64,000 nucleotides of DNA from assembly GCA_041651115.1 (NCBI GenBank), contig JBAZJY010000004.1, forward strand, positions 14,114 to 78,113, written 5' to 3'. The translations under genes were made by a program, and so were the position numbers. Below the pieces are notes generated by a model that was given only the letters and a program-made list of their open reading frames with translations, made no database searches and was not told the origin of the DNA. Positions 1 to 24,400 of this stretch are shown here, piece after piece (the stretch's first letter is position 1; each line of letters begins with the position of its first letter). The DNA is from Candidatus Omnitrophota bacterium. GTDB taxonomy: Bacteria > Omnitrophota > Gorgyraeia > Gygaellales > Profunditerraquicolaceae.

Positions 1-450
1 GCAAAAGAAATAAAGGATTTATGGAATATTAATCCCGATATACGTCAAGCCACCGCTGGCACCTTAATTAAATTAGGCTGGAAACCCAGCACTCCTGAAG
101 AAAAAGTAGCTTACTTAATTGCTAAAGAGGATGGCAAGGCTTTATTAGCAGATTGGGTGAATACAAAGAGGATTCTTATCGCCGACATTGGGAGTAATGA
201 TTATAGTGACTATAATAAAATAAAGATAGCGGTTGATGTTTTTGTGGCCTTGGGACAAGAAGAGATGATTGACTATTTGATAGATATTCTTAATAATTGC
301 GGAACAAAAGAAATGGCTGAAATCTATTTAAATTGTGGATATTATGAACTAGAAGAAGCAGCGATAACATGGGCGCATGATAATGGATATACGATTTATA
401 CTAAAACAGATAGTTATCCGGACGTTAGTTGGGGCAGTTGGCGTTCCGGT
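1..450 (+). other. HEAT or PBS-lyase-like helical repeats at the N-terminal part visible in the window
   Basis: The translation ...DIRQATAGTLIKLGWKPSTPEEKVAYLIAKEDGKALLADW... resembles the periodic 'd.VR..A..aLg.ig' pattern of these repeats. Confidence 0.3.
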
Positions 451-3400
451 GGTAGCTCGCCGGTTGAGTCTGTTGGATATTCACTGTTTCTCGTTGAACG
501 GTTCTTGAGGATCCGCGTCAGCAGGATAGGTTCAAAAATTTATAAGTGGGTCAGAGGGATCTTTACGGGCAGGCGGTTACAGATTAGGTCATATAGCCTG
601 CCGCAGCCATATAACGGTGGGTTTATCAGCAATATTGTGCTCAAGGCCGAACACTCCCGGCTGGGGAAATTCCTGGATATTTTTACCGCCGTCTGGAGCA
701 AGAGAGGAGATATCCCATGCTATGGACGGAGAATAGAATTCGTAGATGACATTGCCGCACGCCTGTATTACCTTACGGTTTATATGGAGAAAAGAGGAAG
801 CATCGGCCCAATCCTGAATTCTTTACAAAAAGTCAGAGATTACCCGAACAAGGAATTCAATGCCTTAAAGAAAGAACAATGGTTTATAGAGTGCGATATA
901 CCCAACACCAAAGAAGCGCGCGAGGCGTTAATCAGGATTCTGCCGGCGAATATGTTTATAATCAAAGAATTCCTTACTCCTCGTCCTCACTCCGGCAACC
1001 GCATGATGCGGATTACCATTGAGGCCGAAGCTCCTGCCGGCAGGTATACCAATATAGCTATACGCAGTATGCTGCATCAACCGCCGATAAGCGCAAGAAG
1101 GGTGCATATTGAATTGGATAAGCGCCTGATCAGCTATCTTGAGAATAATTTTATGGATAATCTTGTCAGGGCAGGAATGAGATTATCCCGAAGAGATAGC
1201 CGGCTTATCCGCGCGGCATTTACAGTCCTCTCCGGAAAGCTTAGCCTGTACAGGGAAGACCTGGAGAATTTTTACTTGAGCCATCCGATTGACGTAGCCC
1301 TGATGCTTGTCCGTCAATACGGGCTAAAGAGCATAAAATCTGTCCTGGGAGGTTTATTACACGATACAGTTGAAGAGGGCTTAAGCCTTGGGGAGATTGG
1401 GTCAATATTTGGCAAAAGCATAGCGCGTATGATTTTTTGGTTAAGCCGCAAGGGAGAGAAAAAGACTTTCCTTTCCGATTATAGGTATTTGAGAAGATAC
1501 CACCGGATGTTTATCAACAAAGCCGATATATCGCTGCAGGAAGCAATAATCGTTACCTTTATCAAAATGGCGGATAAGACGCAGAATTTAAGTAAATTGC
1601 CGCATGATGAGTTGACCCAGCTGAAGAATATTTATTCCGCCCTTGACCGTTTTCTGCCGTGTTTCCTGGAAGGCATTCCTCTTGATAAATTCCCACCTCG
1701 CCTAAGGGACAGATACTATAATGCAAACAATATATTTTTCAATACACTGATTTCTCAAGGCAGATCAATAGGGGCATTTGACGAGAATTTTATTATTAAT
1801 AAAGATAAGCTGGATTTGTATCTGGATAAAGTCATCCCTCCTGAGAAAAGAGAGAAATACGATCTAGAATTTTATCAAAATGCGCTCCTGCAAGTTAAGC
1901 AGCATTTGAGTTCACCTATCACAAATAAAATTTTCTCCGCGAAGAAAGCGATTTCTATTTTTCAACAGCAGGCTGTCAGCGGCAAAAGTATGAAGCGTTG
2001 GCTGGCCAGGCATTACCTTTTTTATGATTGCGCGCCAGCATATAACGATTATGAACATAGCGATGTCAGAATATTTGCGAGTTATATATATAAGCAAAAA
2101 ATTAAAGACATAAGAAGCACTTTGTTAAACTATGCGAAATATATAGGAAGAGGCAAGCGGATGGAACAGGTGCTTATCAGACGAAATACAAAAAAGAAGC
2201 TATATCCGCTTATCTTATGGATGGCCAGAGATAATAATATCAAGCAGGTAAGACAGAAAAGAGAAGGCAGGCTTTTTGGAGCCATTGACATTTCCGCAAT
2301 GGCTGCCGCAGACCTGCCTATATGGCCGGTGGACGAGCGAGGCAGTATTAGGCAGGACCTATTGGAATGGATATCAATAAAAGACAAGGCTCCGCCATGG
2401 GAATACTATAATGCAAAAAAGATATCCCTGTGTGAAACCCTCAAAGTCCAGCCGCAGCAATTGACTCTTGATTTCCAGTCTATTAGTTCTCCGGCAACGC
2501 AAATTAAAGAAGAAGAACTCTTGGAATTAGCGAAAGAAGGCATTTTAGAAAAGGTGATTACCAACCTTGGCCGCGGGCAATTAAGGCTTTCTCCGGAATT
2601 TTCGCGTTTTAAAGAGCACTACTACTTTGGCGGGATATGCGCCAATGAGGCAGACGGAGAAGCCCTGCTGCAGCGCGCCAGGGAGGCCATTAGCCTTTCC
2701 ATAGAGAGGATCTTTAAAAATACCGAAGTTTTCGGGCAGTTTAAGTCGGCGGTTTCCGTGGAAGACAAGTTGAAAAATACAATTATAGTTTTATTGGACA
2801 GGGCAAGGCAGGATAATTTAAGCAGTATGGAGATCTGGGAGATCGCATTGGAAATGTTACGCATGGTGATAGACGGCGATCCTGACGCGGAGATCAAACG
2901 GCAGTCAAGAGAAACAGGATTTTCTTTGTTGAATACATTGCAGCAGCAGGGAATAATCAAAGAAAAAGGCAACTCTTTGGAAACCTTGTTCAGAGTCGCA
3001 GCTTTAGGCAATACTCTGGATTTTACTAATAACCATATCGCAAGGAAATCCGCATCCGGCGAATTCATTCCGGAAGAGATACTGCTTGATCTGAACAACC
3101 CGGATTTCTTTAAGCAAAATGATATAACTAAAATTGAAAAGGAATTAAGAGAGGGAGATAAGACTATTCTTTACTGTTTTGATAATGCCGGGGAAGATAT
3201 CCTTGACCTGCCGTTTATCCGGGAAATGATAAACCTTGGCAATATTGTGTTTTTTGCAGGCAAGCCTCTGCCGGTGGCGAACGACGATACGGTTAGAGAC
3301 CTGAAAACTTTAAGGATAGACCAGCGGACCAGGCAGTTTATGGGCAGTTCCATGGATAAGATATGCGATATCGTATCTACAGGCACAAGAGGACTGGGCT

Positions 3401-6400
3401 TGGATCTGGCCCGCTTGGAAAAAGAAAGGGGTTTGGGTTATTGGTGGCCCATAGCCGATATTATTTTCTTAAAAGGCCATGCAAATTATATGACTGTCAG
3501 GCCGTTTATGCCTGTCACGGATTGCGTGTTTGTCGGCAAGGTAAAGTGGTCGCCTGAATTGAATAAAGGCGGGACAGTGAATTACGAAGACGGGGATTAT
3601 TTTGTGGAATATGTCCCTGCCAGCTCGCCTGTGAAGGAAGCTTATGAATGGGCGAGAAAATATGTTCAGGAATACCAACATAAAACAGAAAATAATGGAT
3701 CTTTTGATGGACTATATGGTAATCCCGAAAAGAAAAGAGCAGAGCTTTTGAGGCTTATAGAAAAACTCAAGAGCATAGGTAATGAAACACTTCGGAATGA
3801 GTTTAAGAATGAACTTTATAATGACATCATAAGCTCGCCGATGCAAATTGCCAAAAAGCCTTACTGCGCGGTATTCATTCCGGAATTTTCCGGCAGAAGC
3901 GCGATTATGGAAATGGTAGCGCAGGAAGTTAAATGGCAGAATATGTCATTGGTAAAATTGTGGGCTGACCATATGCGCTTTAGAATAGCGAATGGAAATA
4001 AAGACGAATTAAGCCTTAAGGAATTTTGTAATTTACCGCTCAAGGCCTATCTGGAAAATCTGTCCGTAAATAAAGGCCTTTTGGCAGGCCTGTCTTTCTT
4101 GAGCCATTATGATTCTTATATTTTCTATCATACTATGCAGCAGGCGGGTTTTGAGCTTAAGGCCGCGTTCTTTATTGATTTAAAAGAGGAAGATATTTGG
4201 AAACGCTATAATAAGAAATTATTGTCCAGCACCAGCGGCAGCGCTCATATAAACAGAGCAACTTTAGAACGGAGAATAGATAATTTTAAATATTTTTCGC
4301 TTCCGGAGAAAAAGAAACTGGAAAAAGCCGGGATAAAAGTAATTAATATTGAAGGTTTATTCAGCCGTAAAATAATAGTAGATAAAATTATCTCCGGGGT
4401 CAGGTCCGTCTCCAGCTCGCCTCTTGGATGCCGCGTATGTATCACAGGCCAACAGATAAGAAGGCTGCAGCCTGTCCTGAAGAATGTCCCCTCTGCAGTA
4501 AATTCCGGAATTAAATTAGTTATTTTTGACAACGGCAATGTAATAATGAATTTTAATTTTAGGCGGGCTGTGCAGGAACTTTCGCGGCGCTTTGCAGTAG
4601 AGCCGGGAGTCGTATCGGATTTTATAAGAAATGTTGATTGCGATAGCGGAAATCCGGTTACTAGATACGGCTCCAGGGAAATATCCAGAGAGCAATTAGT
4701 AGCTGCATTTAATCCGTGGCTGCGGAAACACAGCCGCTCGGCAGACGTGAGACAGGGCAGGAAAGTATTAAGCGTAGCCGAATTCACTGATATATGGAAC
4801 AGTATTTGGACAAGCATGAATGTAAGGGTCGTTATGCTGATGTATAGATTAAGGCAGCAGGGGTATAAAGTCCACGTACTTTCCAACTTATCCGAGCTGC
4901 ATTATGAATATGCTTCCGAAATCTATACCAGGTATCATGTTTTAGATGATTTCAAAAAAGATTTTTACTATAAGAAATACTGGAAAACTCAACCGGAAAG
5001 CTATCGTGAAGTGCTCAATGATGCAAATATGCTCCCCGGAGATACGTTGCTCATTGATGATTTGCCGCGTAACATAGAAGTAGCGCGAGCAGCCGGCCTG
5101 CATACATATTTATTCAATAAATATAATTCCCGGAATATACGCGATATCGTAAATATATTAGGAATATTTTCCAGCTCGCCGATTACTATTTTGGAACTGC
5201 AGCAGGCAGCGGAAAGGAACGCGCAACAGCCTTATGTCGGAGCGGCTTTACGCAGGTTAGCGGATATCGTCTTTAAAGTAAAAGCCCTTGGCGTAATCTT
5301 ACTCAAAAGCGGGTGGCTATTCAAAGAGCAACGGTTGAAGTTTAGCCCTGCCGATCTAGAGCGGCATCTGGGCCTGTTTTCTGACTCGGATAGGGTTTTT
5401 GTGTCTAAACTTAAAGACGGTTACGTCCTAACCAACAATAAATACTTGAGACCAGTACTTAAGGAGTGGGGCATACGTAAAGAAGAAATTAATTGGTTTA
5501 TCGGCCATTACCGCAAGGACAATATCGGAGAGATCGTACGTCAGCTTAAATATGAATATCCGGCCTGCCTTACTAAATTAGCAGGCCTTATTATGAACTG
5601 GAACCTTACGGTTTATTCGCTTTTCTTTAAACGTTCTGACTTACAAAGGGAAGGCCTGCCGGTTGATACCTTAGCCGAAGGACTTAAGCGGCTGATGAAT
5701 GATATTAACAGCGGAATAGAGGATTTTACCGGATTGGTTCCGCAGAACGCCATAGACCAGGTGAACAAAGCGGTAAAAAACCTAGAACCTGCCCTTTTGG
5801 CTTTAGAAGCAAACAAGAAGCCGGAATTTAACCTTCTTGAGTTGACTGTCTGTACTCAATTTGTTTCCGCGCTCCTGAACGTATTCAAGGAACAGAAGCG
5901 CCTGTTGGCTGAAAAGATAAAAAGCGACCGCGGAACGAATCGTTATTCCTTTGAGGCGCGCTATTTTTCTGTCTTGCAGCAGGGCTATGCCAGCGTGGGC
6001 CTCTGGGGCATCCAGGTGCTTTCCGACAGTCCTAAAAAGTATGATAATTTATTTGAATTTTTCCGTTCTATTGACCACCAGATAGATTCTGAACTGGATG
6101 ATATTGATCTTTTTGAAACAGTTAACCTACTGATCCGGCAGGTCCAGGAAGGCCTGGATAAGGAGGCTTTTGTTAAAGGCATGGATTCTCTATCCGGCAG
6201 CCTTAAGAAAGTCAAGGATCCCTATAAGATTATGGCGGCTATCCTGTTGGGCTATGCAAAGGGCTTGTTAGAGATTAACCGGCTTAAACAGGGGACTGGG
6301 CTTTTCGAATTTGCCCAGGAGATGCTGACTTTGAGAGTTAAAAACTGCTGGGGTATCATCAATACCCTTGACGGCGCCTGGGCTGAGGGGCTGCGCGGCC

Positions 6401-9400
6401 ACATCAAGAAGCGTAATGATTATCTTAAAGGTAAAACAATAAAGATCCTGCATGACTTAAAATTCAGGCATTATAAATTCGCCCGTAAGGTTCTGAAAGA
6501 GGATATTATAGACGAAGCGCATTTATCCTTTATCCGCGATCCAGAATTTGCTATGTTTGAAAAGCCCTTTGCACTATTAAATAAATCTTTTTATGAAGAT
6601 AGCACATTGAACAAACTTGAAATTGCGCGGGCGCACCAGTTATTCTCTCTTTTCTTTGATATGGTAATTATTAGTGAGTTGCGAGGTAAATTTATGATGG
6701 ATTACCGTAGGCTATTTGTGAATTCCCGTAAGCCCGGAGAAGCCCGTCTTTCCAGACAAGAAGCATTTAAGCAAACATATTTTAAATACCGCGATTCTTC
6801 CAGGGCGGTATTATCCAGGCCGGAGTTTTATTTTTATCTATTCTGGCAGGCGGCCTTTATCCCGGTGCATACTAAAGAAGATGATAAGCCGGTTAATCCC
6901 GTATTTTCAGCCCTGAACAGGTATGTCTTATCCGGCCAGATTAAAGAAAAAAGATATAGTAGGCTTACCCGGCCGGAAATGCCGAAATTAAGCGAAACGC
7001 AAGCAGCAGAATTTTCCGCAATAGGCGAGCTTTATAAGGAATGGTCGCAGGAGTATGGGATTACCAGGGCCGGGCCGCAAGCCAGCTCGCCGCTTGATTC
7101 TTTGGATTTCCCCGTGGTTATCATCGGCTCGTCAGACGGCGGGAAAGAAGCGATCCCCGCCATTTTAAATCCTGTTTTGAACAGCAAGCCCGATTTGGGT
7201 TTCAGCTGCATTCTTGCCGCCCATAATTTTAATACCAACTACTATCCTTATAAAAAGATCTCAAGAATAATATTGCAGAATATAGCAGATACCATCCAGG
7301 CAGACGTTACTGAAATATCCGATGGTATGCCGGTAGAAAATAACAGGATATATATTGTCCCTCCGATAAGCAATATTTCGCTTAGCAAGGAAGGAAAATT
7401 TGAAGTTTCCGGGATAAGGATTGATTTTATTAAACGCAATCCCAGTAAGAACATCATTAACATTGATTTCTTACTGGATAGCGCAGCCGAGTTCTTCCGA
7501 GATAGGCTGATTGCGGTTATAGCCAGCGGAAACGGCAGCGATGGCAGCAGAGGGTGTTCTTATGTGAAGCTTTATGGAGGCAAGATTTGGGCACAGCGCG
7601 ATGCGATAGAAAAGGCCATGCCTACCAGTGCCCTCAAAACATGCCTGGTTGATGAAATAAAGTTATCCAGTTCTCCGCTAAAAGCAAAAAACGCGATCTT
7701 CTGGTTATTTTTCGCAGCAATGATCACCTTAGCCTTTAAGCAGGCAAGGGCGCAGGAATGGAGCGCTTATCTTTTGGATAGTAACCATAAAGCCAGGGTA
7801 AGAAGCCTTAACTTGACTCACAGCGACATTGCCATAAGCGTGGCTCGGCTTTGGTCAGCGCAGACAGATATTACAACCGTTGATATACAAGACAGCAAGA
7901 AAAAGTATCACATTAATTACATGAAATATGCGGATGCGCTCCAAAAGATAGAAGAAGATCTTGCTGCCGGGAAGAAATTGATCGTAAATATGAATTTCGG
8001 CTCTTACCTTGATTTTTATTCTTTTGAGCATGCCATTTTGGACCTCTACCTTAAATATCCGCATACCTTAATCCTGGTTGCTCCCGCAGGTAACGGTAAT
8101 ACCGATTATCCGATGTATCCGGCAGCCTATGATTTTGTCTTTTCAGTTACCAGTGTTACGGCTGGCTCCGGCTGCTATGTTAAGACAGGCTATGGTAATT
8201 ATGGCGCTTTCGTGGACATAGCTGCCATTGCGCAATCAGAAGAAGGAATGAGCAAGAAAGAGAAACAATATATGCAAGCAACCTGTTTTGCCGCGCCGCA
8301 GGTCGTGGGATTGCTGCTTGAAATATTCGCCGTCAATCCCGTTTTAACTAAAGAAGAAGCCGTAAGGATCATCCAGGATACCGCTGATCCGATAGAAGGT
8401 TACGATTTTAAAGTAATGAATCCTGAGCGCGCTATTAACGAAGTTAAAGCAAGGCTGCTTGCCGCCAGCTCGCCGGTTGTTAGGTATGGCAGCCAAATTA
8501 CGGAATGCCGATTATTGAGAGAAGAGGAAGCAAGGAGCAGGCTTAAACAAGAATTTAATTTTGATTATCCGCTTGATTTAATGAAAACAAATAGGCCTGG
8601 CGGAGCAGCGCCTCGCCTAGCTTCAAATATTTATGCAAAATTAAGCGCCGTAGAGAAGGAATTTCCCGGTTTTAAAGTACCGAAAAAATGGCTCGGGTAT
8701 AACATTAGCAGGATTATTAATAATACAAAACGCAAACTGCAAGAACAGGTAGATAAGCCAAGGCGAGAACAAGAAGCGGTATTAAGGCTTAAGGCAGAAC
8801 TTGGTTTTATTTATCCGGACTCATTAAAACCAAGTGACAGACCAGGGGGGAGTAACTCTATTTCTGCTTCAAAAGTTTATGAAAAGCTAAGCGCTGTAGA
8901 AAAAGAGTTTCCCGGTTTCAAGGTACCTGCAAAATGGATCGGAAAATGGGATGTTTCAACTCTTGTAGAGAGAGTAAGAGACAGGATGTCAATAAAGGGC
9001 AAAGATGCAGTTAAGAGATTAAAGGACGCATTTGATTTTAATTATCCTGTTGATTTAGTGCCTACTCATCGTCATTATTTTAGCGCCACAGTTATTTATA
9101 TAAAATTTCTTGAAGTTAACAGCGAATTGCCTGGATGTAAGATATATAAGTCACTATTGAATTTATCTTCGGAGGCGATCATTTTTAAGTTATCTGCGAA
9201 TATGGCGGGAAAAACTTATGATAAGAAAATTGAATATATTAAATTACTCAATAAGGTATTCGGTTTCGCCTATGAAGAATTATCGCCTCGTATCAGGGCT
9301 GAATTTAAGCCAAGAACGATATTCCGTCGCCTTGTTTATATAGAAAAACGGTTATTAAAAGAGCCTGCCCTGAGAATACTCGGGATCAGATGGAAGAACA

Positions 9401-12400
9401 TACCATATAAGGTTATCTTTAAGAGATCCGCAGATGCCGATTTGCAGGATTATCTTGACGGATTGGCCGCGGGCAAGTTCACCCCTGTATCAACAAGCAA
9501 GGGGATAATAAGGTTCAAGATAAACATCAGCGAAGAAGAGGCAATAAAGAGGATTGCGGATGAATTTGGTTATATCTATCCATATAGCTTTCCTGTGAGG
9601 ATTTGGCCGGGCCAGAAGCGTTATTCGCCGCCTAGTAGTATCTATACTAAGTTAACGAAAATAAGAAAAATGTCTCCGGATTCTGAAATTTCCCTTTGGC
9701 TGCTTGAATATGGCCTGGATACTGCTATCAATAAAATCAAAGGTATAAATGACCGTAAAGCCGCAGCGCTAGAGTCGCGAGAACGCAAAAAAGCGCTGAT
9801 AGAACAATTTAAATTAGGTAAACGCTATTTTTCGCATTCTTTAGAAAAGGTAGCATATAAATCTTCGCTTCAGAATGAAAAAGAACAAAGAAAAGCGGAA
9901 AACAATAGGCAGAAATTAGAAAAAAAGAAGGCCAGGGAAGAAGCTAAAGAGGGAGCCAGGATAAAGAGAATGCTAATTATTAAAAAATACAACCTGCCCA
10001 TTTCATATTCTAACCGCAGCCTTGCTTTTATTGAAAAGCGGGTCCAAGAGTTAAAGGACAAAGAGTATAATTCTGCAAGTTATGAGAACTATGTAAATAA
10101 AATAATGCATAGATATTATCCCGGCCGCAATATAGACATAGAAATGCTTTGGCAAAAGATGAAGCAAGGAGAAGGAATGGCAAGAAAGACCATTATCGAA
10201 TACGTGCTTAATCTTGTTATAGAGATAGAACAAGGCAATAAAAGTAGGAAAGAGATCTTGAGGTCTGTGTATAAACTTCCTTCGCATAAACAGTATACCC
10301 GCGACGATTATATACAGGAAGGAAATTTGGCCGCGCTTCAGGCGTTGGATAAATGGAATCCTGCTTGGGGAATGAGCCTTGAATCATTCCTTAGGGATGA
10401 GATAGGGTCTGCGGTTAAGAGGTCTAGGGCGACAAAAATTAGAGATGACAAAAGGGCTATCTCCCTTCAACAACCCAAGGGTAATAAATCTAATAGCGGA
10501 AATTTTCGCACCGTAGAAGACCATCTTGCTAATCCGGATGATGAGCAGTATTTGCCTGGACCGGCTGAAAGGTTTGAGTTTATGTCTAAAAAGATACGCA
10601 GTAATGATTTCTTATTTCTTGCCGAGGCCGGATACCCTATTAACAAGGGTTTACTTATCAGCAATGAAGAAAAAAAAGCTTTTGCTAAAGCCTTCAACAA
10701 CCATCTAATAAACAGCGGAATGTTTAAAGATACTCCTTTTGATATTGCTGTATTGATCATCGGCAGTATGGGCAATATTGGGATCGCCCGCAGGAAAATA
10801 AATCCCAGCGACTTAAATCTTATTGTTCTTTCAGACGTTCATCAAAGTCAGTCTATAGATATACATCGCAGGCAGTGTCGGGAGGTAATGGCTAGGTTCA
10901 AAGACTGGATCGGAAGCGGTGATATCTATCATATGACTGAAGGCGGCGAAAGATTTACGCTTCAGGTAGAAAAGGATAGCACCGTTGAGTCTTCCAAATT
11001 GCTGTCATTGCTTCAAAGCTATGGCTTAAAGAGTAAGGTATCACTTGAATTAATTCCTCTTGACGGCAATATTAACGTTGTCAACAGGGCAGCTTGTCGC
11101 AGCCATATCCAAATAATGGAATACTTCTACCAACTAGGCGCAAACGGCATCCTTATTTTTGAGTCTAAAGAAGGATTTGCGGAAAATATACTGGATAAGC
11201 TATCAAAAGGTCTTGAAGCTGACGCCGTTGCATACGAACCGATTGCCGCCAAGTATATGCTGGATTTCTGCCTGAGGCAGATTGATAAGGTCGTCCGTCA
11301 GCAGGAAGCCGCGGTTGTCCAAGGCAGCTCGCCTCTCGGCTGCGTCGTGGCAACAAGGAGCAGCGCCTTTAATGTTCTTGCTAGCTCGCCGGTTGAGCGT
11401 TCCCGGCCGCAGAAGATGAGCCTCAACGCGTTCTTGGAGCGGGAAAACAACGAGTTATTAAAAAAATCCGTTAAGCCTTTAAGCAGGCTTAGATGGTCGG
11501 TAAGGGCGGTTGACTGGATATTCGCGTTTGTAAAATACCCGTTACTGTCCAGCGCTTCTCTGGGAACTTTGCTGCATAGCTTAGGAAAACTTGACCTCAC
11601 GATTTTTGGCAGCCATATCGGTTGGAAAATGGTCATCGGAGTTATCGGCAGCGCCTTGTTTATCGTTACGGTAAGACTGGCGCAGGTTTTTATCTTTAAA
11701 TATTTTTATCCTGAAGTTTCTCTTCCCAAATGGCGGCGCTTTATTCTTCCGCTGATAATGCCTGCTCCTATAGGCGGAGAATGGCTTATGTTCAGGATAT
11801 TAAGTCCGTTATCTGATGTAAAGGAAATGAAACTGCTGCGGGATATAGAATATTCTCTGCAAAATATTATTTATAGATCAGGGAAATCATTCTCCGCGCG
11901 GATAGAAGAATTATCTGAGGGATGCGTCCCGGAGATCGCCAGAAAAATACTGGATTATGGAAAATCAAGCATCGGGGAAGATTATCTCAAGCGCGCAAAT
12001 CGCAGATTGATCAGCAGTAGAAAATATATCTTGAAGCTTTTGAAGAGCAATTTCTCGGAAGACCCCAGGGTAAGGAAAGAATCACATTCTGATTTTATTA
12101 TAAAACTACCTACCGGATTTTCTCCGGAGATGGAGCGACAACTAGAGGCGTTCAGGAAAGAACATGAAAAAAACAGCGGAGAAGCCAGTTCGCCTGCCAT
12201 ATACGAAACTGACGACGGCTACCGGGTATATACGTTAGCCCTCAATCATAATTCCTATGTTTCTATAGCGGAATTAGGCGCTAATATCGTAGACCTGGTA
12301 ATCGCAGGCAAGCGCATAGTCTGGCACAAAGGCTTTGACCCTGCCGCAGGAAGAGTCACGCGTTTAAAAGATCCGGTTACCGGAGCTAATCTTCCCGGCG

Positions 12401-15400
12401 GCATACCTTTTATGTTCCCTTGGACCAGCCGCATTGATAAATCGCTAGCGTGCTTTTTTGGCAGAGCGATTGATCTTACTGATCCGAGCCTGACATTAGT
12501 GCGCCGCGTCCCGGATGCCAAAACCGGGCCGAATGTACTGCACGGGATGACCGATAAAGTAAAATGGCTTAATGAAAAAGTGCATCCGGAATTTATCAAA
12601 TTCTCCTGTTTTACGGGCGCATTCAATGAAATATCCAGCCGCTTCGGCTTGCTTAAGGCCGAGCTTGTTTTTCGTCTGGAGAAAAATACGCTTACGGTAC
12701 ATACAACCGTAGCCAATAAAGACACAAAATTACTTATTTTTAGCTTTGGCCATCACCCATTTTACTTTCTGCCCGATATCCGGCAATGGCAGGCGCAGGT
12801 CCCGGCAGAGATGTATTGGCAGACAGATGCGGCGCAAGTCCCGCTTTACCAGCAGCCGCTCGCAGTAGAAGGCCCTACTGACTTGCGTAAGCTTACTTCT
12901 ATAGACCGGCCGTTTGAACAGGGCTATACCGGGCTTAGAGTTGATAAGGGAGTAATAACTTCGTATTTCCATAATGATAATACCAAAGAAACTTTAACCG
13001 TTTCTCAAGGCTCGGGGTATACAAACCTAATGTTTTGGGTACCCTTAGGTAATCCTAATATTCCTGAAGGAGTAGCCAGTATCCAGCCGCTGGTTTCCGT
13101 AGCTAACGCTATTAATCTCTTTAGTCATGCCAGGCAATGCCGGGATCCTGTAATTGCTAAATATGCCAATCCGGTTATTCTCTTCCCGGGTGAGCAGATC
13201 AGTGTATGGTGGAGAGTAAGTCTTGACGCCGCTATCAGTTCACCGGTAACAGAAAGAAAAATCCTGTTGGCAAAAAGGGAAGAACGTAAAAGAAAAGAGT
13301 TATATAAGGAAATGGAAGCCAGGGGAATAGATATAGATGTTCCTCCCAGCCTGATTAGGCACCACAGTGTTACTACCGTCATTAAAAGATTAGAGAAGGA
13401 GATGGCAGCCGGTATCGAGAAAGAGAATAGAAGGAAATTAATCGCCAATCAGGCAAAAAAAGAACTCGAAGAGAGTCACGGGATTGTTTTGCCTGCCGGG
13501 TGCCTGCGCAGAGGCAAGAACTACGTTGATCCGGTAAAATTACTTAATAAAATAAAAGGAATAAAAACAGAGCTAAAACGCAGGGGCATTATTAAATATA
13601 CCATTACCAAGAAGCAGCTTTTCAATAATAATGCCGAACGCATAGTAGAGATCATCCAGGCGCGCTCCGCAGCAGGCAAATACCAATCGTCGTATCGCAA
13701 GGAATCCGTAAGCAATAAAAGGATTAAGGTGCGAAAATTTACCGAGGCAGAATACGCAGCCAAGCTTATTGATGATTTTCAGTTTGATTATGGAAATTCA
13801 AAAAAGATAAGCTTGGCCTCAAATCTGTATATAGCTTTGAGTAAAGTAAGAGAAGTTTTTCCTGATTTAAGAAGAGAAGAGCTTCCGGAAGGATCAATCT
13901 GGTACGGCCAAGCTAAAATCGTAGACGCAATTTCCAAGAAAAGAAATGCCCGGGAAAGGGGGAGCAAGAGAGAAGACGCTGAAGCAGCATACCAGAAGAA
14001 ACTCTCAGAAGAGTTCAATTTTATGTATCCGGATGGGCTGCCTGAAAGTAATCAGCCGGGCAACGGCCACTGTATAAGTGCTTATAAGGCGTACAGGGCT
14101 TTAATAAAGGTAAAAAGCCTACTGCAGGAAGCGGGATTTGAATTACCCGATGTAAACACATTTACATATATGTTGGGATGTACCCCGGAGTTTATCAGCA
14201 ACAGCTTAATAAAGACGCTCAAATTCAGGGAAAATAAAGCAGCCGAAGAAGAGAAGAATTCAGAGGCCAGGGAAAAGCTTTTTATTGATTTTGAGTTTAA
14301 CTATCCGCAAGATTTAGGGCATTTTGGCAGCGGGTATCCTGTTATTTCCGCATCGCGGTTATGCGCCAATCTTATAAAAGTAAAAAAAGAATTACCTGAT
14401 TTTAATTGGAAAAACCTCCCGTTAAAAGTGCTTATCAGGTATCCCTCAAAGATCATCATTTACCTGAAGTCAGTGCAGCAAAAGAAAGACCGGCAAGAAG
14501 CTGTGCGAATAAGCCTGAATAGGGACTTTGATATAACTAACCCCGAAACATTAAAGATTACTGCTTCCAAGGCGCGCAGTAATTTACTCGCCATTAAGCG
14601 GATATTAAAAAAGCGAAGACTGGCTCATCTACAAGTGCCGAAAAATATGCTTTCGCTTGCTCCGGCTACAGCCGCCAAATTGATCAGGGCGCAAGAATTG
14701 AGGAGGAGAGAAAGAAAGATGGCCGGGATTGCGTTGAAAGCGGAAAAACAAAAACTGATCAATGAACATCAATTACCCAAGGCCTACTTTTTACGCAGTA
14801 TATCTTTTATAAAAGAGATGATCAAACACGGGCCGCCGCGCCTGGATGCCTGTTATGGCGGTTATAACCGTTATGTCAATTATATCTTCAGTCATCCGTC
14901 TAAAGTTGAGGAAATGGAATTAGAGCTTCTTTGGCAAAAGATGAAAAAAGGCAACAACTCGGCATATTGCAAGTTGGCGGAATACTTCCTGCCGGTAGTG
15001 ATTGAAATGGTAGAGGGAGAAACCAAAAAAGGTATTCTGTCGCGGCCATCCAATTATTCGGAAGAACACCAGAAGGAAATGGACGATTATGTCGGCGAAG
15101 CCAATTTAGCTATGCTGGAAAGCATAAAAGAATGGGAACCTGGTCCAGGCAGCACGCTTGAAGCTTTTGTAAAAGAAAAGATCAAGGCTGCGGTCAATAA
15201 GTTAAGGTCTAAGAAATATGCCGAGAAAAGACGGAACGACGATAATATAGATTCGGCAAGGCGGCAGATTTTAGAATTTTCATCCCAGGATTACAGTCAG
15301 CATCCGGATAATGCCTTAGAGCGTTTTGAGATGATGAAAAAGGTAGTAGCGAGCATAAAGAAAGGTAATTTCGGCTTTCTGGCTGATGCCGGCTACCCTA

Positions 15401-18400
15401 TAAACCAGAAAGCGCTCTTTAGCCTTACGGATAAACTATCTATTAAGCAGGAACTGCGTAATTATCTCATCCGCAGCGGGATATTCAGCGCTATGCCGCT
15501 CAGGTTTGCGATGTGGATGATTGCCAGTATGGGCCAGATCGGGCTTGCGCGTAAGAACTTAAGCGACCTTAATCTCCTCATCATCTCTGATTCGCATCAG
15601 GAATCCTCTATGAACGAACATCAGGCCATTTGCCGTGAATCCATGGTTAATCTTAAAGAGCTCGTTGGAACCGGCAAACTCATTGAACAGAGGATAGATG
15701 GTAAAAGGCTGGTATTGGAAGTCGGAAAGGATAATTCTTATAAGAATAATAAACTTTATCAATCTGAATTTATATCTTTACTTAAAGACCATAAGATAGG
15801 AAGCCAGGAACGCGGGTTCGCTTCCATAGAGCTGGTTTCTTTGAACGGCAGTATTGAGCCCGGCAATAAAGCTCTATACCGCGGCGGTTTCCATGTCGCA
15901 GAAAACATCTATCAGATGGGTTCAAACGGGATCCTTATTTTAGAATCGGAAGACGGCGTTGCCCAGGAAATGGCCCAGGGGCTGCATCAGCAGTTACAGG
16001 CCGATCATAATGAATATCTCTATTTTATATGCAATTACCAGCTGGATTTCTTTGCCAAGCAAGTAGAAAAAGTAAGGCAGCAACAGGATGCGTTAATCGC
16101 GGCAAGCAGCTCGCCGGCAGATATCAGCAAGGCATACATTAAATATTTAGAGAATCCCCAAGCCATGATTGACGAAGATAAAACCCTGGTCCTTGCCTTT
16201 TGCCATAACAACACGGATATGGACGGTATGGCTTCCCTCATCGGACATGTTTATTATTGCCGGGAGATTGAAAGTAAGGATATCCTCATAATGCCGGTTA
16301 TCCCCCAGCAAGGGGCGCTTCCGTGGAATATAGTGCATATTTTGCAGCGCGGCGGGATCAATAAAGATGACTTCTTTTGTTTTGAAGACATAAAAAGTCA
16401 TCTTGAGAACATCGCAGCCAATCCCGCATTCATGGAACGCATATTGCTTGACCTGCTTGACCATAATGACCCGGAAGAAAAAAGCCTGGAGCAATTTGCA
16501 ATCCGCAATATCATTGACCACCATTCCCTGGAAAGGGAATTACCTTATAGGGGAGTACGCAATATCCAAAGGATAGGGGCAACTGCCACGGCCGTTACAA
16601 TGAATTATTTTAACCGCGGGATAGCTATGCCGTATGGCATAGCTTATATCCTGCTTGCCGCCATCTGCCTGGATACGGACAGTTTTTGTTCCAATACCGT
16701 AACCCGCAGGGACGGCAAGGTGGTCCAGGAATTGGCGCGCCTGGCTAAAATAGACGCAAATAAGCTGTTTGACGGCGTTTCAACAATTTCATATTGCACG
16801 CGCGCCTCTACCTGGGGAGAATGGCTTTATGACGTTAAAGAATACGGGGCGTTGATTTTCAGGCAAACAAAAATAAACGATATGGATGAATTAAAGAGCA
16901 TTACCAGGAGCATGATCATCAGCCATATCAAAGAGGAAGTGGAGAGCCGCCCTGAGATTCGCGCTCAAGTCTGGATGGTAACAAGCATGGATCAGAAATC
17001 GTACGGCAGCATGGTTTTTGTATATGCTAAGTCCGGAGTAGAATATGGCAACAGGATCATCAGGGCGATATCGGATTTAGAAATAACAAAGGCAGGCCTG
17101 GTTGAGGCGTTATGGATGAAGCCGGCCTTGAAAATGATCCAGGCGGGGATAAAAAAGGCAGACTTCAGATATATCGTGAATGTATCCGGAATGGGCCTTA
17201 GCGCCGATAACGGAAGGCTTAAGGCGTTCAGGCAGCTTGCCGCATCTTTGATCAAAAAGAACCATTTATCATTGAAAAATAACGGCCAGTTGAATATAAA
17301 AATTAATTCCCATCGCATCGCAAAAATCCTTTTAAAGTCCCTTTCGCAAGACGGTATAAAACTTGATTTATCTACGATTATGCGGATGCAACGCGATATT
17401 GACGGGGTCGTTATGCTTTATTTTTCCGGCTGCGGCTCGCGCAAGATGTGGAAGGATGCCGTGCAGGAAGTCATAAAAGAAACCATAAATAAGACGAGCT
17501 CGCCGGTGGCTGCGGAGATGTATTGGCTGCGGGATGCGGTATGGGTGATGGGCGGAGAAACTCTCTCTGCCTTGTTTAACGATAATAAGGAAACCTTTAA
17601 AAAGATATATGCGGTGGTAATTGCCTGGTGGCTTCAGGGGGTGCTTGCTTATGCGCTGGCTCGTATTTTTGGCGGGGATATCTTCACTGCCTGGGGCATA
17701 TTCCTGGCCGGGCATATGTTAGATTTCGTCCTGAATATTCTTCGTTCCAAGGGAGCCCGCGCGCCGCCGCTTAATATGCTTATCGCCGCTTTAATCGCAT
17801 CTGTCAGCCTGGCTATGGGTTGGTCAACGATCAATCTCTTATCCTGGGCTGTACAGGCAGGAGTTGCCCTTTTCTTCCTATCTCTTTCCTTAGTGTCTTC
17901 TTCAGTATGGCGCCGCCGCACGGTTGTTCTATTCAGCCTTATTCTCGTTTTAGCCTCTGTAAAAATCATTGATAATTCATTGCGTTATTACCGTATGGAC
18001 GATGAAGCAAAGGCCATAGCGCACAGTTATTCACTTCCAATAATACCGCAGGAGCAACACGGAACATACTGGCAGGATGAATTTAACAACATGGATCAAC
18101 TGCTTGATTTTATTTCCGACCCCGAGGTTATCAATGTTCCTTCTTTTGAGGCGCGCGAGCAGGCTTATCTGGCAAAGGTAAGGCTACTGGTGAACGCCCA
18201 AACCGTCTTTGCCGCGGATAAAATATATGCAGGGCAGCGATTGGGGCAGCTCGCAGCTAACTATCAGGAAATAGTTTCATTACCTGATACGGCATTCTGG
18301 TTTCGCTGCAGCGAAGCAGAAATGTTGACCGTGCTTTTACGCAACCGTATGGATGTTGCCTCTCGCCAATTATTATCAGCAGACGTGGATAAATTATTTT

Positions 18401-21400
18401 CCGATGAAGACTTCCCGGATCGTTTAGTCAACGATCCTATGTTTGGCTTGTATTACGAATATACCGTTTTATACGGCCATTTTGCTCAATTTAACGCTAA
18501 CATGAATTCAATTACGCAGGCGCGGGGAGATTCAGTGCATGCTATGCCGCTGGTATTGCTTGAGCCTATTCGCCAACTGCGGCAGGCTCCTCCGAAATTG
18601 GTTAAAGAATTGAAAGCAGCAGCAGATACATTTGGCTTAGATTGGGAGTTTACTGCCAGTCATCTTATCAATGTTGATGATGTCAGGTATTCCCTGCGTG
18701 CGGGATGGAGACATTACCGGATACGTAAATTTAACCAGGGAAACCCCATAGAAGATACTTATCGTTATGATCCAGAAGGGTTGGCGTTGCCTCGGTATGT
18801 TAACGATGCGTTAGGCGGTATAATCATTGGCGGCGGCAAGAATAGCACGGGTTCCTTTCAAATGCGCTCTTATGAAGTGCGCAGATACAATCTTTTTAAG
18901 AATCTGGGGATCGATGCCGCAAGCTTATCGGACCGCGAAATCAATATGTTATTGCTTAAGCCGGAATATGCTGCCTGGGCATGGGTAGCGTTTAACAGGG
19001 CGGCTATCAATGAAGTTGATTATTTACGTACTTCCAACCAACATGAGGTTAATGCAATCATCAAAGGATTAAATAAGAGCGCTACTGTAGGGGGCTCCTT
19101 CATTTTTGCATATCCAAAAGAGCTTTTCTCCATGCTTCCTTCAAAGGCGGACCTAGGCAGGGCCGATTGGATGCTGACTTTATACCATCCCCTATTTAAT
19201 GGAAAGCTGTTTAGTTCCTTATCATCGCAGTATATCGTCATTGTCTCCGGCATCGGCGACAATAAGCCGGGGATTTTTACCGGCATAAAAACGAATCAGG
19301 ATATCTTATCTTTACGATTATTATTGTCTGGTCGCGATGCCTATCTTAGGGATGCAGCCTGGCGTACCCTGGAAGCTTTAGCCAGGGATTCTACAAATAT
19401 TGACCTGCAGAAAGCATCCCGAAAAATATTACAGGAAGCTTCTGGTAGCTCGCCGGTTTCCGATAATCCGCCGCTTCCAGACAACCGTACCGCAGTTCCA
19501 GCGGGTTATGCGTTGATCAGCGATGCCCAGGGCGCCAGTTATTACGATCTTTCTGGCGATCGGAGGTCATGGAAAATTCTGCACCGTCGGATCAAGAATG
19601 CTCTCCAGACGCATTATCCGATTAATCCGCTTATTCAATTAATTAGTGAAAAGGAGTTGCACTTGTTGATTATGCCCGGAGTTATCCAACGTGGCCGCGC
19701 CTTAGTAAGATTTCTACAGGATATCTATTCCGGTGAATGGAAAGCAGTCAGAGATGGGGTTATACCCGAATCCGTAGTGCGCCGCGCTCTCAATAGCCAG
19801 GGTTTTGAAGAGCTTGTAGGCAGATTGCCTACGGAAAGCATAACCATTACTTATGGGCCGGATTTGAACTATGCCGCAGGATATGTATTTGATGATAATA
19901 TCGGTTCGCTGGGCGGAAGGGAGATAATCTTCCGCGGACAGGAAGCCTTGTTAAGGATTTTTCCGGGTATTGGCCTATATCATACCGTTAATATTTTCCG
20001 AAAATACATTAAGGAGCTGGAAAATGTCCTTTCCGGCCGGGAGGGCATTATTGCGGCCTGGCGGCATCCCTGTTTTAGCGAAGGCGGCAACCAGGAATTC
20101 CTAAATAATTTATATAAAGAGTGCGGTATCGCGGTTGTAGGATATGGCTTGCCTAATATGAACAGGTTTGAGGTCCGCCCGGGAGGATTATTTATTTTGG
20201 ACCGGAATAACCGGGAAAATAGAGTGAAATATTTGATCTACAATGATTATGATTTCTCTCTGGATCCGGGTTATCTTCCTTTTAAAAACCGCATGAAAAT
20301 TTTTGGTTACAAGGAGATTGTGAATGGTATTCCCGGCATAGTCGGTTTGATTGAAAGTGGAAAATTGCTGATCGGCCATCACCCGGGTTCTTCCATGGCT
20401 GACTCTAAGCTTGTCTATCCGTTCGTACGGAAATTTATTCGCTACTATCTTGGGGAAGATCCGCTTTTGAAGTCCAGTAGATGTTTTGCTTTAAAAGAAG
20501 GTTTTGGGTTGCCAATAATGCCTTTCGGCGACGCGCTGGCAAGGCAAAACGAGTTGGTGCTTAAACCTATTATGGGAGAGTGGGGCAAGGGAGTCCGTGT
20601 GGGTAAAAAGATCAGCCATGACCAATGGCGCAGATTTTTAGTGGAAGCGTATCTATGCCCCCATGATTATATTTTCGCTGAGCATATTCAGCCCATGATT
20701 TTAAGCGATTATATAGTTGTGCATAGAATAATCTGCGACATTATGGCTGATGGCAGGACAGTGGTCCAGCCCGGGATTTACGGGAGATCTAAGCGTAATG
20801 AAGAGGGTAATGGCGTAATCGGTTGCCCGGTGGATGGTGTTTACAGCCGCACTATGCTTACGATGGCAGAAGGCCTCACCTTCCCGATGCGTGCCAGTTC
20901 GCCGGTAGAAGATAAAAAAATAGCCGATACGATAACGGTCACTCTAAAATCTGAACGGATGGTCACATTAATAATTATGGTTTTAAAGGGTTTTCTCGTA
21001 ATGCTCTGTAGTTATTATATCTTTCTATCAATCCCGTTGGCTTATCTTATCATGTTTATATTTTGGATTGGCGGTTTAGATTATTCATTTTCAGAGACCT
21101 TCCGTTACGCCAATATTTTATCAGTGCTTATGCTTTTTTATATTCGGAAAGCCTTTCCGGAACTTCCGAAGCTAATAAAAAAAGAACGGATTGTTTTTGC
21201 AGACGGCAAAGGCCGTATTTATGAATATTCCGGTTCTACATATATATGTCATGGCGAGACTGAAAAAGGCAGGCATGTATTAGAGAATATTAATGTGATA
21301 GGCAAAGATCTGCACGAGCAAGGGGCGCCGGCTCTCCTGATAATCTCCTGTAATCCTAAAGGCGGGAAGATAGAAGAAAGATTGCCCCTTTATTATATAC

Positions 21401-24400
21401 ATGCATTATCTCGGGTCACAGGGGTGATTAAACTTCCCGGCATATTCAGAAGATTTTCTTTTTCATCCAACGGCTGGACTATTGTTTCTCCTTCCGGAGA
21501 AGAAATGCCTTTATACGAAGCCATTAAGGAATTTTCAGAAAATGGGAAGACCTTGAATTTTAACTTATGGGAACAACAAAAATGTCTTATCAGCTCGCCG
21601 GTAGACCTTAAAGAAATAGGCGGGGTTATACTTGCTCCTTCGCCGCTGGCGGTCAAGGATAAGAGCCGGCTTCCGGAAAAGATAAATGAATGTTTGGCGG
21701 CGCAGCGTAATTGCGGAATAATGTTGCCCTGGATACATTGGGACATTATTGAAGGCCATCGTTCGGATATAGTTGCTTGCGACAATCCCGAACCAACCGT
21801 AAATATACTTACGCCGGAATTATTGCAGGGTATATCCGGCGCAATCAAAGATGTGCACCTTATGTATACCCGGCCAAGTGAAAAATTCATTCAGAGATAT
21901 ATTAATGCCGGTGCCCACATTGTGACTTTGCATTGGGAATCTTTCAGGTATAAGAAGAGGCTTATTGAAAGGATCGAATATGTTAGAAAGCAGGGGTGCC
22001 TGGCGGGTTTGGCTTTCAATCCGAGTAGCGATTTAAATGCGATAATCAATTTTCTCCATGACCGCCGCCTGAGAGGGAAAGTGGACTTATTGCTGCCGAT
22101 GAGCATACTAGCCGGAGCGGCTAACCAAAAATTCATTGAGAGTGCCTTGATCAGTATCGCTAAGTTAAGAAGATTATTTCCGAAATTATTCATCCAGGCT
22201 GACGGCGGGGTAAACCTGGCAGAGCCAGAAGGAAGAGAAAGCACAGCTAAGAGGGTAATCCGGGCAGGCGGGCCGGATAAATTATTGTTAGTTACCGGCG
22301 GCGCTTTCTTCGGTAAGGGCGAACAGATCCAGGCAGAATTTGAGCAAGCCATCCGGGATTTTCAGGCTGTAATCAAGGAAAGCCGGGTGGAAGAAATCAA
22401 TATCAGTAAAGGCCAGGATTACTATTCCCAGGTAGAGGCAATATCCAAGCGTATATCTGCAAAAGAACTTGGCGGCGCCATTATCACTACCGATTCAGAA
22501 GTGACCAGCATGGCTGCCGGCGCTATTGCCAATAAATTTAAAGGAGTGCGCGCTTCGGTTTGTAGGAACGTCAATCAGGCGGAATTTACCCGTAAACATA
22601 ATAATTCAAATATTTTAATTGTAAGAAAAAAAGATCCCAAGAGAGAAGAAATAATTCTGGAATGGTTATTGGATGAATTTGAAGGCGGCAGGCACCAGCG
22701 CAGGGCGGAAAAGATTGAGCTGGATAAGGTTTCTGATGAGAAAATTGCAGGAGAGATAAACGCGGATATTATTCCTATAGCCTCTGATCATGGCGGTTTA
22801 GAATTAAAGGAGTTTGTAAAATCAGAATTAGAAGTCATGGGGTATAAAATATTTGATGCTGGTACCTATAATAATGAATCTTGCGACTATCCTGATTTTG
22901 GCAAAAAGGCGGCACGTTTAGTTTCCAGGGGCGTGGTAAAAAGAGGTATAGCGATCTGCACTACCGGAAGAGGCATAAATATGGTGGTGAACAGGTATCC
23001 CGGGGTGATTGCCGCTCAGTGCGATAATCCTTATCAAGCCAGGAAAGCGCGGCAGGAATTAGGCGCCAATATGCTGGTTATGGGGCAGAAATATTTGTTG
23101 GATGAGCAAGGTAACATCAACATTAAAGCTGTCCGAAGTATATTAACGGAGTTCCTTAGACAAAAATATAATTCTACCGAAGAAAGGAATAGAGAGGTTC
23201 GTGACGCGTTATCCTTCAGCTCGCCGGTAGGATATTATCCGGCAAGGCCGGTTGATTTCGGTGAAATCGGGCGGTTCCTTGGCCGCATCAAGAATAAAAC
23301 CAACGGGCTACGGCTGGAGGATTTTGTTTTTGAAAGATTCAGCGAGAAAACCCTTTTCTTGTTGCATTATCAAGGGCCCGCATATGAGGTGGTACGGCAG
23401 GCAGCTTACAATGCTCTGAACTCGCTGGATTATTGCCTGCGCACCCGGCCGGCTCATATTGCCTCCTCGCGTGTTTCCGGATTGAGCGGGGAAATATCCG
23501 GTATATACGAAATAATCAAAAGAGGCAGCGTCCTTACGCAAACAAAATTAGGAAAATTAGAGGCAATAAATCCCGTATTTCGCAGCAAGGATTTTACCGC
23601 CAAAGAGTTTGACGCTATCAGTACCAACAGCGTATTTGAATTTAAATTCCACCTTAGCCTGCATAAGCTTTACCAACAGGTGATCGGGATGGATTCGGCG
23701 AAACAGCCCCACTTAAAGGTCCTCAGCCGTCCCGAATTCAGCCATATAAGGAATTTGGTCTATTTCGGTGAGAATGATAACGGGCACGTGGTCAAGGCAA
23801 TTAACCTTTTTGTAGAAAAAAAGCCAAAAATTCTCCCGCGACTTTCTGTTTCTGAAGACGGCGGCGTAGCGCTAAAGCTATTTTTGCACGGCAGCGAGGT
23901 ATACGATTTCTTAAGTTCAAAGACGACGCTGGACCTGTTTAGCCGGGAACAAAACCGCAGATTCAGCAGGGGCTATCTCTCCGGGTATTTAAGGACAAAG
24001 CTGCCGTATATGCGCCAGATCATAAACGGGAAAATCAACCGTCTCGGCGTAGAAGATAAATTTGACGTGATCATTGCCGTTTCCAATACCTGTCCGGCGG
24101 ACTATCTCCGAGCCAAAACCCTTGCCAGTTCTCCGGTAGGAATACGCTTCCGCGTAGATAAGGTATTAAAAGAAGTAACGTTCGGAGAAGATATGCAAAA
24201 CGGCGCCCTGCGCGCCTGGGAAATAAAGTTATTTATTTCGTCGGTAATAAATATGGACAAAAGGCTGCATGACTATCTTGACTGGATAACCGATAATCCG
24301 GGGGAAGGCAGATACTATGTATGCGGATACTTTGATAATGAACCTGTGCCTGTGGGATTCATAAAGGAAAGCTATTTTGATTTTGGGAATATCGGTGCCG

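Follow-up and report, generated by a model that had tools for sequence, protein, structure and literature searches.

Two anciently duplicated copies of an Omnitrophota-restricted cassette with sigma2-like and nucleotidyltransferase-like domains in a giant open reading frame

The 64,000-nucleotide stretch of Candidatus Omnitrophota DNA analysed here (contig JBAZJY010000004.1, hereafter the window) begins with a giant open reading frame (ORF) that runs from a GTG start at position 157 to position 29721 on the forward strand (+) and encodes 9,854 amino acids (aa) with no in-frame stop under genetic code table 11. The ORF is divided into 30 segments by the tripeptide Ser-Ser-Pro (SSP), and two of these segments, which we call module 1 and module 2, carry in the same order a repeat array, a linker, a helical domain resembling region 2 of sigma-70 (sigma2-like) and a predicted nucleotidyltransferase-like (NTase-like) domain. 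An earlier note made from the letters of this DNA alone had described the two modules; their coordinates and lengths were exact, and both are SSP-to-SSP segments of one ORF. The features are as follows.

157..29721, +: giant ORF with both modules inside, a chain of 30 segments bordered by 29 in-frame SSP[VLAIM] motifs
8467..11325, +: module 1 (segment 10, 953 aa, residues 2771-3723 of the giant protein), with repeats, a K/E-rich linker, the sigma2-like domain and the NTase-like domain
8467..8475, +: SSP junction at the start of module 1, AGCTCGCCG
8518..9756, +: module 1 repeat array, five units of about 70-100 aa, each ending in an F.F.YP-like element
8572-9582, +: re-phased repeat units of module 1, followed by a weaker fifth unit
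10126..10455, +: sigma-70 region 1.2-2-like helical domain of module 1, including the region 2.2-like DDYIQEGNLAALQALDKW
10663..11322, +: predicted NTase-fold domain of module 1, an alpha/beta core with a helical tail
10762..10818, +: G-S-x-G-x2-G ... S-D-x-N motif of module 1 (G240, S241, D256 and N258 in core numbering)
11047-11049, +: putative third carboxylate of module 1, E335 in core numbering
11326..11334, +: SSP junction at the end of module 1, AGCTCGCCT, which opens a 19-aa mini-segment (11326-11382)
13237..16107, +: module 2 (segment 14, 957 aa, residues 4361-5317 of the giant protein), domain order as in module 1
13237..13245, +: SSP junction at the start of module 2, AGTTCACCG
13735..14700, +: module 2 repeat array, four clear units, with one or two degenerate units upstream (~13339-13791)
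14908..15234, +: sigma-70 region 1.2-2-like domain of module 2, from the family alignment and the profile against PDB
15424..16104, +: predicted NTase-fold domain of module 2
15523-15573, +: A-S-M-G..S-D-L-N motif of module 2, with E336 at nucleotide (nt) 15829
16108..16116, +: SSP junction at the end of module 2, AGCTCGCCG

The two modules are paralogous, as had been proposed. BLASTP aligned residues 486-951 of module 1 collinearly with residues 489-955 of module 2 at 34% identity (E=2.3e-81), and the match (E=2e-81) holds under SEG filtering; several extra off-diagonal matches fell among the N-terminal halves. MAFFT alignment gave 36% identity over the C-terminal halves and 37% over a trimmed core, so that the similarity extends far beyond short shared motifs. 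In a self-BLAST of all 30 segments, modules 1 and 2 were the sole paralogous pair, and the duplication is therefore specific to the cassette rather than a piece of a larger duplicated block. The architecture, previously called identical, is the same in domain order but differs in detail, with five clear repeats against four, different linkers and a Gln in module 1 at a His of the wider family. Similarly, the string QxGxNGILIxES occurs literally in both modules, whereas GSMGxIGxARxxxxxSDLNLxxxSDxHQ is literal in module 1 only: the corresponding stretch of module 2 is ASMGQIGLARKNLSDLNLLIISDSHQ, also excerpted as ASMGQIGLARKNLSDLNL; Ala takes the place of the first Gly there, and the spacer is shorter by two residues. 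The lengths do agree to within four residues, but the N-terminal halves are not collinear and a global alignment stretches to 1,140 columns. With N-terminal halves that are organized differently and a cassette length that varies across lineages (1,109 aa in the relative P0002, 1,157 aa in L086 and ~1,184 aa in P0013), the near-equal lengths are probably a coincidence.

A HMMER profile built from the two C-terminal halves retrieved 36 proteins at E<=1e-3, 13 of them at E<=1e-30, among 1.84 billion representatives. Nearly all are 1,300-7,000 aa long and most lie inside very long ORFs; ten were looked up, five of which have a source name, in each case Candidatus Omnitrophota. Neither a scan of a genome collection nor a first metagenome scan returned a relative of the module, and a word-indexed homologue search with the whole of module 1 gave no matches, missing even the module's own protein. 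The metagenome contig L086 (GC content 37.7%) carries a module that is 49% identical to module 2 over 817 aa and 36% identical to module 1. Over the trimmed core, module 2 and the L086 module share 58% identity, compared with 37% between modules 1 and 2 and 35% between module 1 and L086, and neighbour-joining supported the grouping (m2, L086) with 100% of bootstraps and (m1,(m2,L086)) with 79%. Since the L086 module groups with module 2, the duplication predates the split between the window and L086 and postdates the split from P0002, P0003 and P0004. These comparisons show the L086 module to be an orthologue of module 2 and the internal duplication to be old, in agreement with the moderate identity from which its age had first been read. 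An independent tandem duplication is present in P0001, whose two copies are 44% identical. The database search also turned up the stand-alone homologues for which the earlier note had suggested looking: the cassette is its own, separately terminated gene in P0003 (1,318 aa) and P0001 (3,538 aa), each with an N-terminal signal peptide and each within an array of long co-directional genes. Together, these results show the modules to be old duplicates of one Omnitrophota-restricted cassette of repeats, sigma2-like domain and predicted NTase-fold domain.

The sigma-70 region-2-like stretch stands as a family, although Pfam on its own was borderline in module 1 and blank in module 2: Sigma70_r2 scored 22.7-24.1 bits for module 1 against a cut-off of 24 (24.1 for its core), fell below the cut-off for module 2 and matched four of the 17 family members. 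A two-sequence profile gave weak sigma matches in PDB, and significance was reached with 17 sequences, the core profile matching regions 1.2-2.4 of SigK (8vjl, 9.7e-7), SigF (1l0o, 3.7e-6) and dozens more sigma factors. With significant profile matches to solved sigma factors, the stretch is a real sigma2 homologue. Foldseek comparison of the core model with PDB likewise returned sigma factors at probability 0.99-1.0, and a viral structure library again gave sigma factors. Region 2.2 of sigma-70, DLIQEGNIGLMKAVDKF, contacts the beta-prime clamp helices of RNA polymerase. The DDYIQEGNLAALQALDKW of module 1 is close to it, and of the residues of its QEGN element, module 1 keeps Q, E and N and module 2 keeps E and N. 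Region 2.3 of sigma-70 is FSTYATWWIRQAI with the aromatic YATWW; by inspection of the alignments, the modules read LESFLRDEIGSAV and LEAFVKEKIKAAV instead, and the aromatic residues used in -10 melting are absent. No sigma region 3 or 4 was found in either module (Pfam E<=0.01, NCBIfam E<=0.1), and the whole-protein sigma models of NCBIfam scored 16-20 bits against cut-offs of 43-394. At the sequence level, then, the domain is homologous to sigma factors and the cassette is not a sigma factor. What it shares with sigma-70 factors such as SigK and SigF is the helical domain spanning regions 1.2-2.4 and the QEGN-type residues of region 2.2; unlike them, the modules lack regions 3 and 4 and the -10-melting aromatics, and their sigma2-like domain is fused to a predicted NTase-fold domain with long repeat arrays ahead of it.

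Structure prediction points to a Pol-beta-type NTase-like fold, in a D-x-N variant, for the shared C-terminal domain that had previously been left unidentified. AlphaFold2 run on the 17-sequence core alignment (A3) gave a model with a predicted local distance difference test score (pLDDT) of 75.8, in which a helical domain (~12-137) is joined through a disordered linker to an alpha/beta domain (207-426). The predicted order of elements in the latter (alpha, beta1, the G-S loop, beta2 starting with D256/N258, alpha, beta, beta, alpha and a beta-strand bearing E335) fits the Pol-beta nucleotidyltransferase core. Foldseek with the core model found exactly two kinds of neighbour in PDB, sigma factors and nucleotidyltransferases, the latter being OAS2, TdT, Pol lambda/beta, OASL, Cid1, FAM46 and NF90 (E = 2e-3 to 5e-2). 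One family member matches DUF294, a putative NTase family in Pfam. A profile of the NTase domain alone had no matches in PDB, and PADLOC gave no CD-NTase or defence match to the modules. Across the 17 sequences the conserved core columns are K210, S241, G243, G246, D256, N258, G290, R352, H356, G365, N367 and Q412. In the hG[GS] motif S241 is near-invariant and G243 and G246 are conserved, with A-S for G-S in module 2; column 335 (within ASIE, on a predicted strand at 332-339) is acidic in 16 of 17 members. D256 is near-invariant and the second catalytic position is Asn in 17 of 17, so the [DE]h[DE]h pair is incomplete. As read from the alignment, the signature is hGS...D-x-N...E, the classical NTase motif with its second carboxylate invariantly replaced by Asn. 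The model thus has in common with the Pol-beta superfamily (OAS/Cid1/TdT/FAM46, DUF294) a predicted alpha/beta core, G-S loop, acidic start of beta2, later acidic residue on a beta-strand and helical C-terminal subdomain; it is unlike that superfamily in having D-x-N rather than [DE]-x-[DE] throughout and no sequence match to solved NTases.

Both N-terminal halves carry repeats, but the FxFxYP string by which these were first recognised is literal in just four of the nine units, the others having LGFIYP, FGFAYE, FGYIYP, FQFDYG or FDITNP. A hidden Markov model (HMM) of the repeat found five units in module 1 and four in module 2 but no others along the 9,854 aa, and an HMM from one module alone picked up those of its counterpart, with E down to 3e-5, and nothing else. 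Comparison with homologues suggests that the FxFxYP-like element closes each ~80-aa unit instead of opening it, and a single unit was modelled as three helices (pLDDT 79). Most homologues have, at the equivalent position, from one to >20 repeats of the form GG[DN]..LL.A..F.I.LP (~57-63 aa). These match HTH_Tnp_IS630 and HTH_psq weakly, and the window repeats gave no helix-turn-helix (HTH) match; for the two kinds of repeat, equivalence is claimed in position alone.

Both modules end, as they begin, at SSP junctions, which organize the giant ORF as a whole. SSP occurs 29 times (at 454, 1909, 2485, 3622 and so on to 29578), compared with 2.07 occurrences expected from composition and a maximum of seven in 1,000 shuffles, and the next residue is V, L, A, I or M in all 29 cases. 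The resulting segments are 19-957 aa long; none of the ~14 Pfam domain matches is interrupted by SSP, and most begin 10-45 residues past a junction. The sigma2-NTase core stops exactly at a junction in each of the four lineages examined: the window, twice (...AAVVQG/SSPL and ...LIAAS/SSPA, the slash marking the border), P0002 (...DDAS/SSPV), P0013 (...ILSA/SSPV) and L086 (...ATVS/SSPV). P0002 contains 38 SSP against 1.9 expected and, in P0016 (L088 nt 10001-21844), the junction-like S[SP][SA][RH]F[AG]E occurs 12 times against 0.12 expected. Signal-peptide-like or transmembrane (TM)-like stretches directly follow SSP at nt 7669, 24676, 25507 and 28591. In L086 the order of units is a TM segment, RpiB, an unknown unit, the module 2-like cassette, a 13-aa mini-segment and a segment-28-like unit, quite different from the order in the window. 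The excess of SSP, the intact domains, the positions at which the cores end, the stand-alone genes and the differing order together argue that the segments are autonomous, polyprotein-like units. The arrangement resembles the polyproteins of picornaviruses and potyviruses in having one ORF, many autonomous proteins, a short boundary peptide and a protease-like domain; unlike those, this is a cellular chromosomal gene whose processing is only proposed, with a nucleotide-level junction consensus and with exported and membrane units.

Several further observations concern the junctions and segment starts. By eye, ITAAGQFAA recurs in P0023/P0025 and hydrophobic MLP(L/I)VP-type motifs recur in P0012; P0022 is also among the Omnitrophota giant ORFs with differing recurrent junction-like peptides. 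The 19-aa mini-segment after module 1 is SSPLGCVVATRSSAFNVLA, and a similar 13-aa one, SSPVGAVVAIRGV (L086 aa 1763-1775), follows the module 2 orthologue; SSPLGC also opens segment 6 (4414-4431), and P0002 has many mini-segments of 5-30 aa. Segment 23 (25507-25600) starts with SSPIRNYNRRDFIGLSVMGALGF ahead of an M23 peptidase, a stretch that is twin-arginine-like (NRRDFIG, RRDF); the NCBIfam model for the twin-arginine signal did not match it. An export-signal-like segment start reads SSPVMTTGARV...LFLIFFSFFLFFVSVPAAQAQQ, and the last two segments share a motif after SSP, GARVRTQLEQ (28591-28650) and GARVNTQLEQ (29578-29640). In L082 (nt 1-140, 7254-7261), neighbouring long ORFs lie 6 nt apart and the upstream one ends in ...SASPVWE*, with a stop just after a junction-like motif; here the polyprotein arrangement may exist in split form.

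The junctions also share a nucleotide pattern, with the consensus (C)AGCTCGCCG(G), that is, (C)AGC-TCG-CCG(G). The first Ser codon is AGY in 29 of 29 junctions, compared with 40% of other Ser codons (P=3e-12); the second is TCG in 20 of 29, elsewhere the rarest Ser codon (8.5%); and all 29 Pro codons are CCG or CCT. Just ahead of the motif stands a C in 20 of the 29 junctions, even though the preceding residues vary. Exact AGCTCGCCG strings number 15 in the window, all of them in-frame junctions of the giant ORF. In L086, with another GC content and codon usage, AGCTCGCC[GA] stands at four of five junctions (nt 655, 1120, 1816 and 5326), and more distant lineages use other junction codons. Strict conservation at individual sites was rejected, as orthologous pairs (window against L086) differ at two to three of the three third positions where background third-base identity is 53%. 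In sequence terms, the pattern is a common bias toward one 9-12-mer and not site-wise conservation. Possible causes are copying, homogenization or a role at the DNA or RNA level (a recombination joint or an RNA signal). Because AGY and TCN Ser codons interconvert only by way of a non-Ser codon, inheritance of junctions by copying is possible.

Elsewhere in the 29.6-kb giant ORF, Pfam identified ~14 distinct enzyme or binding domains: HD, ARMT1-like, two HAD, CheB methylesterase, S8, aldose epimerase, DHH, circularly permuted ATP-grasp, RPE with two RpiB, M23, and CBM48 with a methyltransferase. About 11 TM-like stretches lie along its length. In segment 19 (21592-23217) ribulose-phosphate 3-epimerase and two tandem RpiB, pentose-phosphate enzymes, are joined in a single unit. 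Segment 9 (7669-8466), S8 subtilase-like with a signal-peptide-like start, adjoins module 1 upstream and by eye reads ATCFAAP where subtilases read GTSMAxP, so that Cys may replace the catalytic Ser; it may be a candidate processing protease or a pseudo-protease. L086 nt 1-6312 holds cassettes homologous to window segments 14, 19 and 28 in another order and adjacency, which suggests that cassettes have been reshuffled at junctions. IS200/IS605-type Y1 transposase genes (PF01797) lie within ~4-6 kb of giant ORFs in two unrelated relatives:

L081 nt 16667-17338: Y1 transposase gene (PF01797) near a giant ORF
L088 nt 5507-6019: Y1 transposase gene (PF01797) near a giant ORF

Downstream of the giant ORF, from 29.7 to 64 kb, the window contains co-directional genes of ordinary bacterial type, including those for a PilZ protein, a sugar ABC transporter, glycoside hydrolases, ROK and LacI regulators, class II ribonucleotide reductase, MnmG, Pst/PhoR and a porin. 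The MnmG is ~71-73% identical to those of many Candidatus Omnitrophota metagenome-assembled genomes, with other phyla much lower, which assigns the window to an uncultured Omnitrophota bacterium whose species has no near representative in the collection. An alternative genetic code was ruled out, as these 34 kb of genes read normally with table 11, and an Rfam scan of the whole window found no RNA families.

Published work describes giant ORFs made up of many unrelated enzyme domains as a hallmark of Omnitrophota (10.1101/2023.11.21.568195; 10.64898/2026.06.07.730766; PMC10066038). The window ORF is like the Archaeovorin-type giant ORFs of those reports in its Omnitrophota host and its length of >20 kb, and has in common with them HAD, methyltransferase, peptidases including S8, sugar-phosphate enzymes, TM helices and signal-like segments; it lies at the small end of the size range (9.9 thousand aa). 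One Omnitrophota giant-ORF preprint states that cleavage points are unknown, and one study could not subdivide giant ORFs for want of cleavage or boundary information. Term searches of West-Roberts et al. 2023 (10.1101/2023.11.21.568195) and Nielsen & Lui 2026 (10.64898/2026.06.07.730766) gave no SSP, linker, polyprotein or junction motif, and by such searches neither they nor Seymour et al. 2023 (PMC10066038) mention a sigma-like or nucleotidyltransferase-like module. In the literature searched we found no paper joining Omnitrophota and polyprotein, and no description of the junction motif or of the sigma2-NTase cassette. The class of giant ORFs is already known, whereas this literature yielded neither the cassette and its duplication history nor the junction rule.

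We give roughly even credence to a reading in which the modules are duplicated Omnitrophota cassettes of a polyprotein-like ORF, with proposed release, RNA polymerase docking and nucleotide binding. The giant product would amount to a polyprotein or, failing that, a chain of autonomous units, from which the cassette would probably be released by cleavage at SSP junctions, or would at least work independently. The sigma2-like domain would then dock on an RNA polymerase core, its own or that of a bacterial host or prey, through the retained region-2.2 surface, and the docked cassette would not act as a promoter-melting sigma factor. The NTase-like domain would bind nucleotide, with transfer chemistry altered or lost, and the helical repeat array would bind a polymeric partner, maybe nucleic acid; after the duplication, modules 1 and 2 would have diverged to other partners or specificities. 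Confidence falls along this series, from release or independence through RNA polymerase docking and nucleotide binding to a partner for the repeats.

Several points weigh against this reading. SSP could be a mere inter-domain linker, cleavage being a proposal. Binding to RNA polymerase is inferred solely from the retention of region-2.2 residues. With D-x-N for D-x-[DE], the NTase-like domain may be catalytically inactive, and module 1 has Gln at a near-invariant family His while module 2 has Ala at the first Gly of the G-S motif. The repeat-unit model had no meaningful structural neighbours in PDB, and the window repeats showed no significant homology to the GG[DN] repeats of homologues by hmmsearch, phmmer or hhalign in two phases. 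A bolder version, that the SSP junctions are both cleavage sites freeing ~30 proteins and recombination joints and that the cassette is a novel RNA-polymerase-targeting effector or regulator, strikes us as improbable; joints of this kind would account for the module 1/module 2 duplication and for the differing cassette order in L086. A predatory or episymbiotic lifestyle has been proposed for Omnitrophota, and together with the signal peptides of the stand-alone genes this makes an exported, host-directed role for the cassette conceivable, as speculation.

The best-placed alternative to release is that the product is never cleaved, SSP being a linker in a membrane-associated multi-enzyme protein in which the modules regulate or scaffold in cis. 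We regard this as somewhat unlikely but worth keeping in view: published work treats Omnitrophota giant ORFs as single TM-rich proteins and reports no cleavage data, the TM-like stretches are spread along the ORF, and the S8-like segment, by eye with Cys for the catalytic Ser, may be inactive. A passive linker, however, fails to account for the presence, at all 29 boundaries, of an invariant tripeptide with an aliphatic residue next to it, and it leaves without account the lineage-specific alternative junction peptides and the signal-peptide-like stretches directly past junctions; moreover, the cassette is elsewhere a separate gene. Less still speaks for a cassette that acts on nucleic acid rather than on RNA polymerase, its repeats and sigma2-like domain binding DNA or RNA and its NTase-like domain tailing 3' ends as Cid1 and TdT do, which we consider unlikely. 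True sigma factors use their sigma2 domain to bind single-stranded -10 DNA as well, template-independent polymerases (TdT, Cid1 and FAM46) are among the structural neighbours, and the repeats of homologues weakly match HTH families; yet the aromatics that bind -10 DNA are missing from the modules, D-x-N argues against efficient two-metal catalysis, and the window repeats are without an HTH match. It is very improbable that we are dealing with genuine alternative sigma factors inside a giant protein, despite the Sigma70_r2 similarity and the annotation of the homologue-bearing P0019 as a sigma-70 family sigma factor. The sigma annotations of P0019 and P0016 are explained by complete sigma factors that those giant ORFs carry separately, at other places, and alongside the absent region 2.3 aromatics, the missing region 3 and NCBIfam scores far below cut-off, the lack of region 4 in the Pfam and NCBIfam searches effectively refutes this idea. 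Finally, an artefact of assembly duplication, low complexity or chance motifs, as the K/E-rich N-terminal halves and off-diagonal matches might hint, is refuted and has a negligible chance of being correct, since identity of 34-37% is not the near-identity of an assembly repeat, the match survives SEG filtering and an independent orthologue exists in another sample.

Taken alone, the duplication is well established but of modest weight; it matters because it exposes a conserved cassette and a boundary code in proteins whose function is called poorly understood in the literature. The cassette is a conserved, phylum-restricted and unprecedented pairing of a sigma core-binding domain with a predicted variant nucleotidyltransferase fold, which gives a concrete hypothesis, RNA-polymerase docking, for part of these giant proteins, and such cassettes duplicate and reshuffle as units. 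A simple boundary rule, SSP and then an aliphatic residue, for which other lineages have their own equivalents, predicts those units, making piecewise structure prediction feasible and the polyprotein question, whether there is one protein or many, testable by proteomics.

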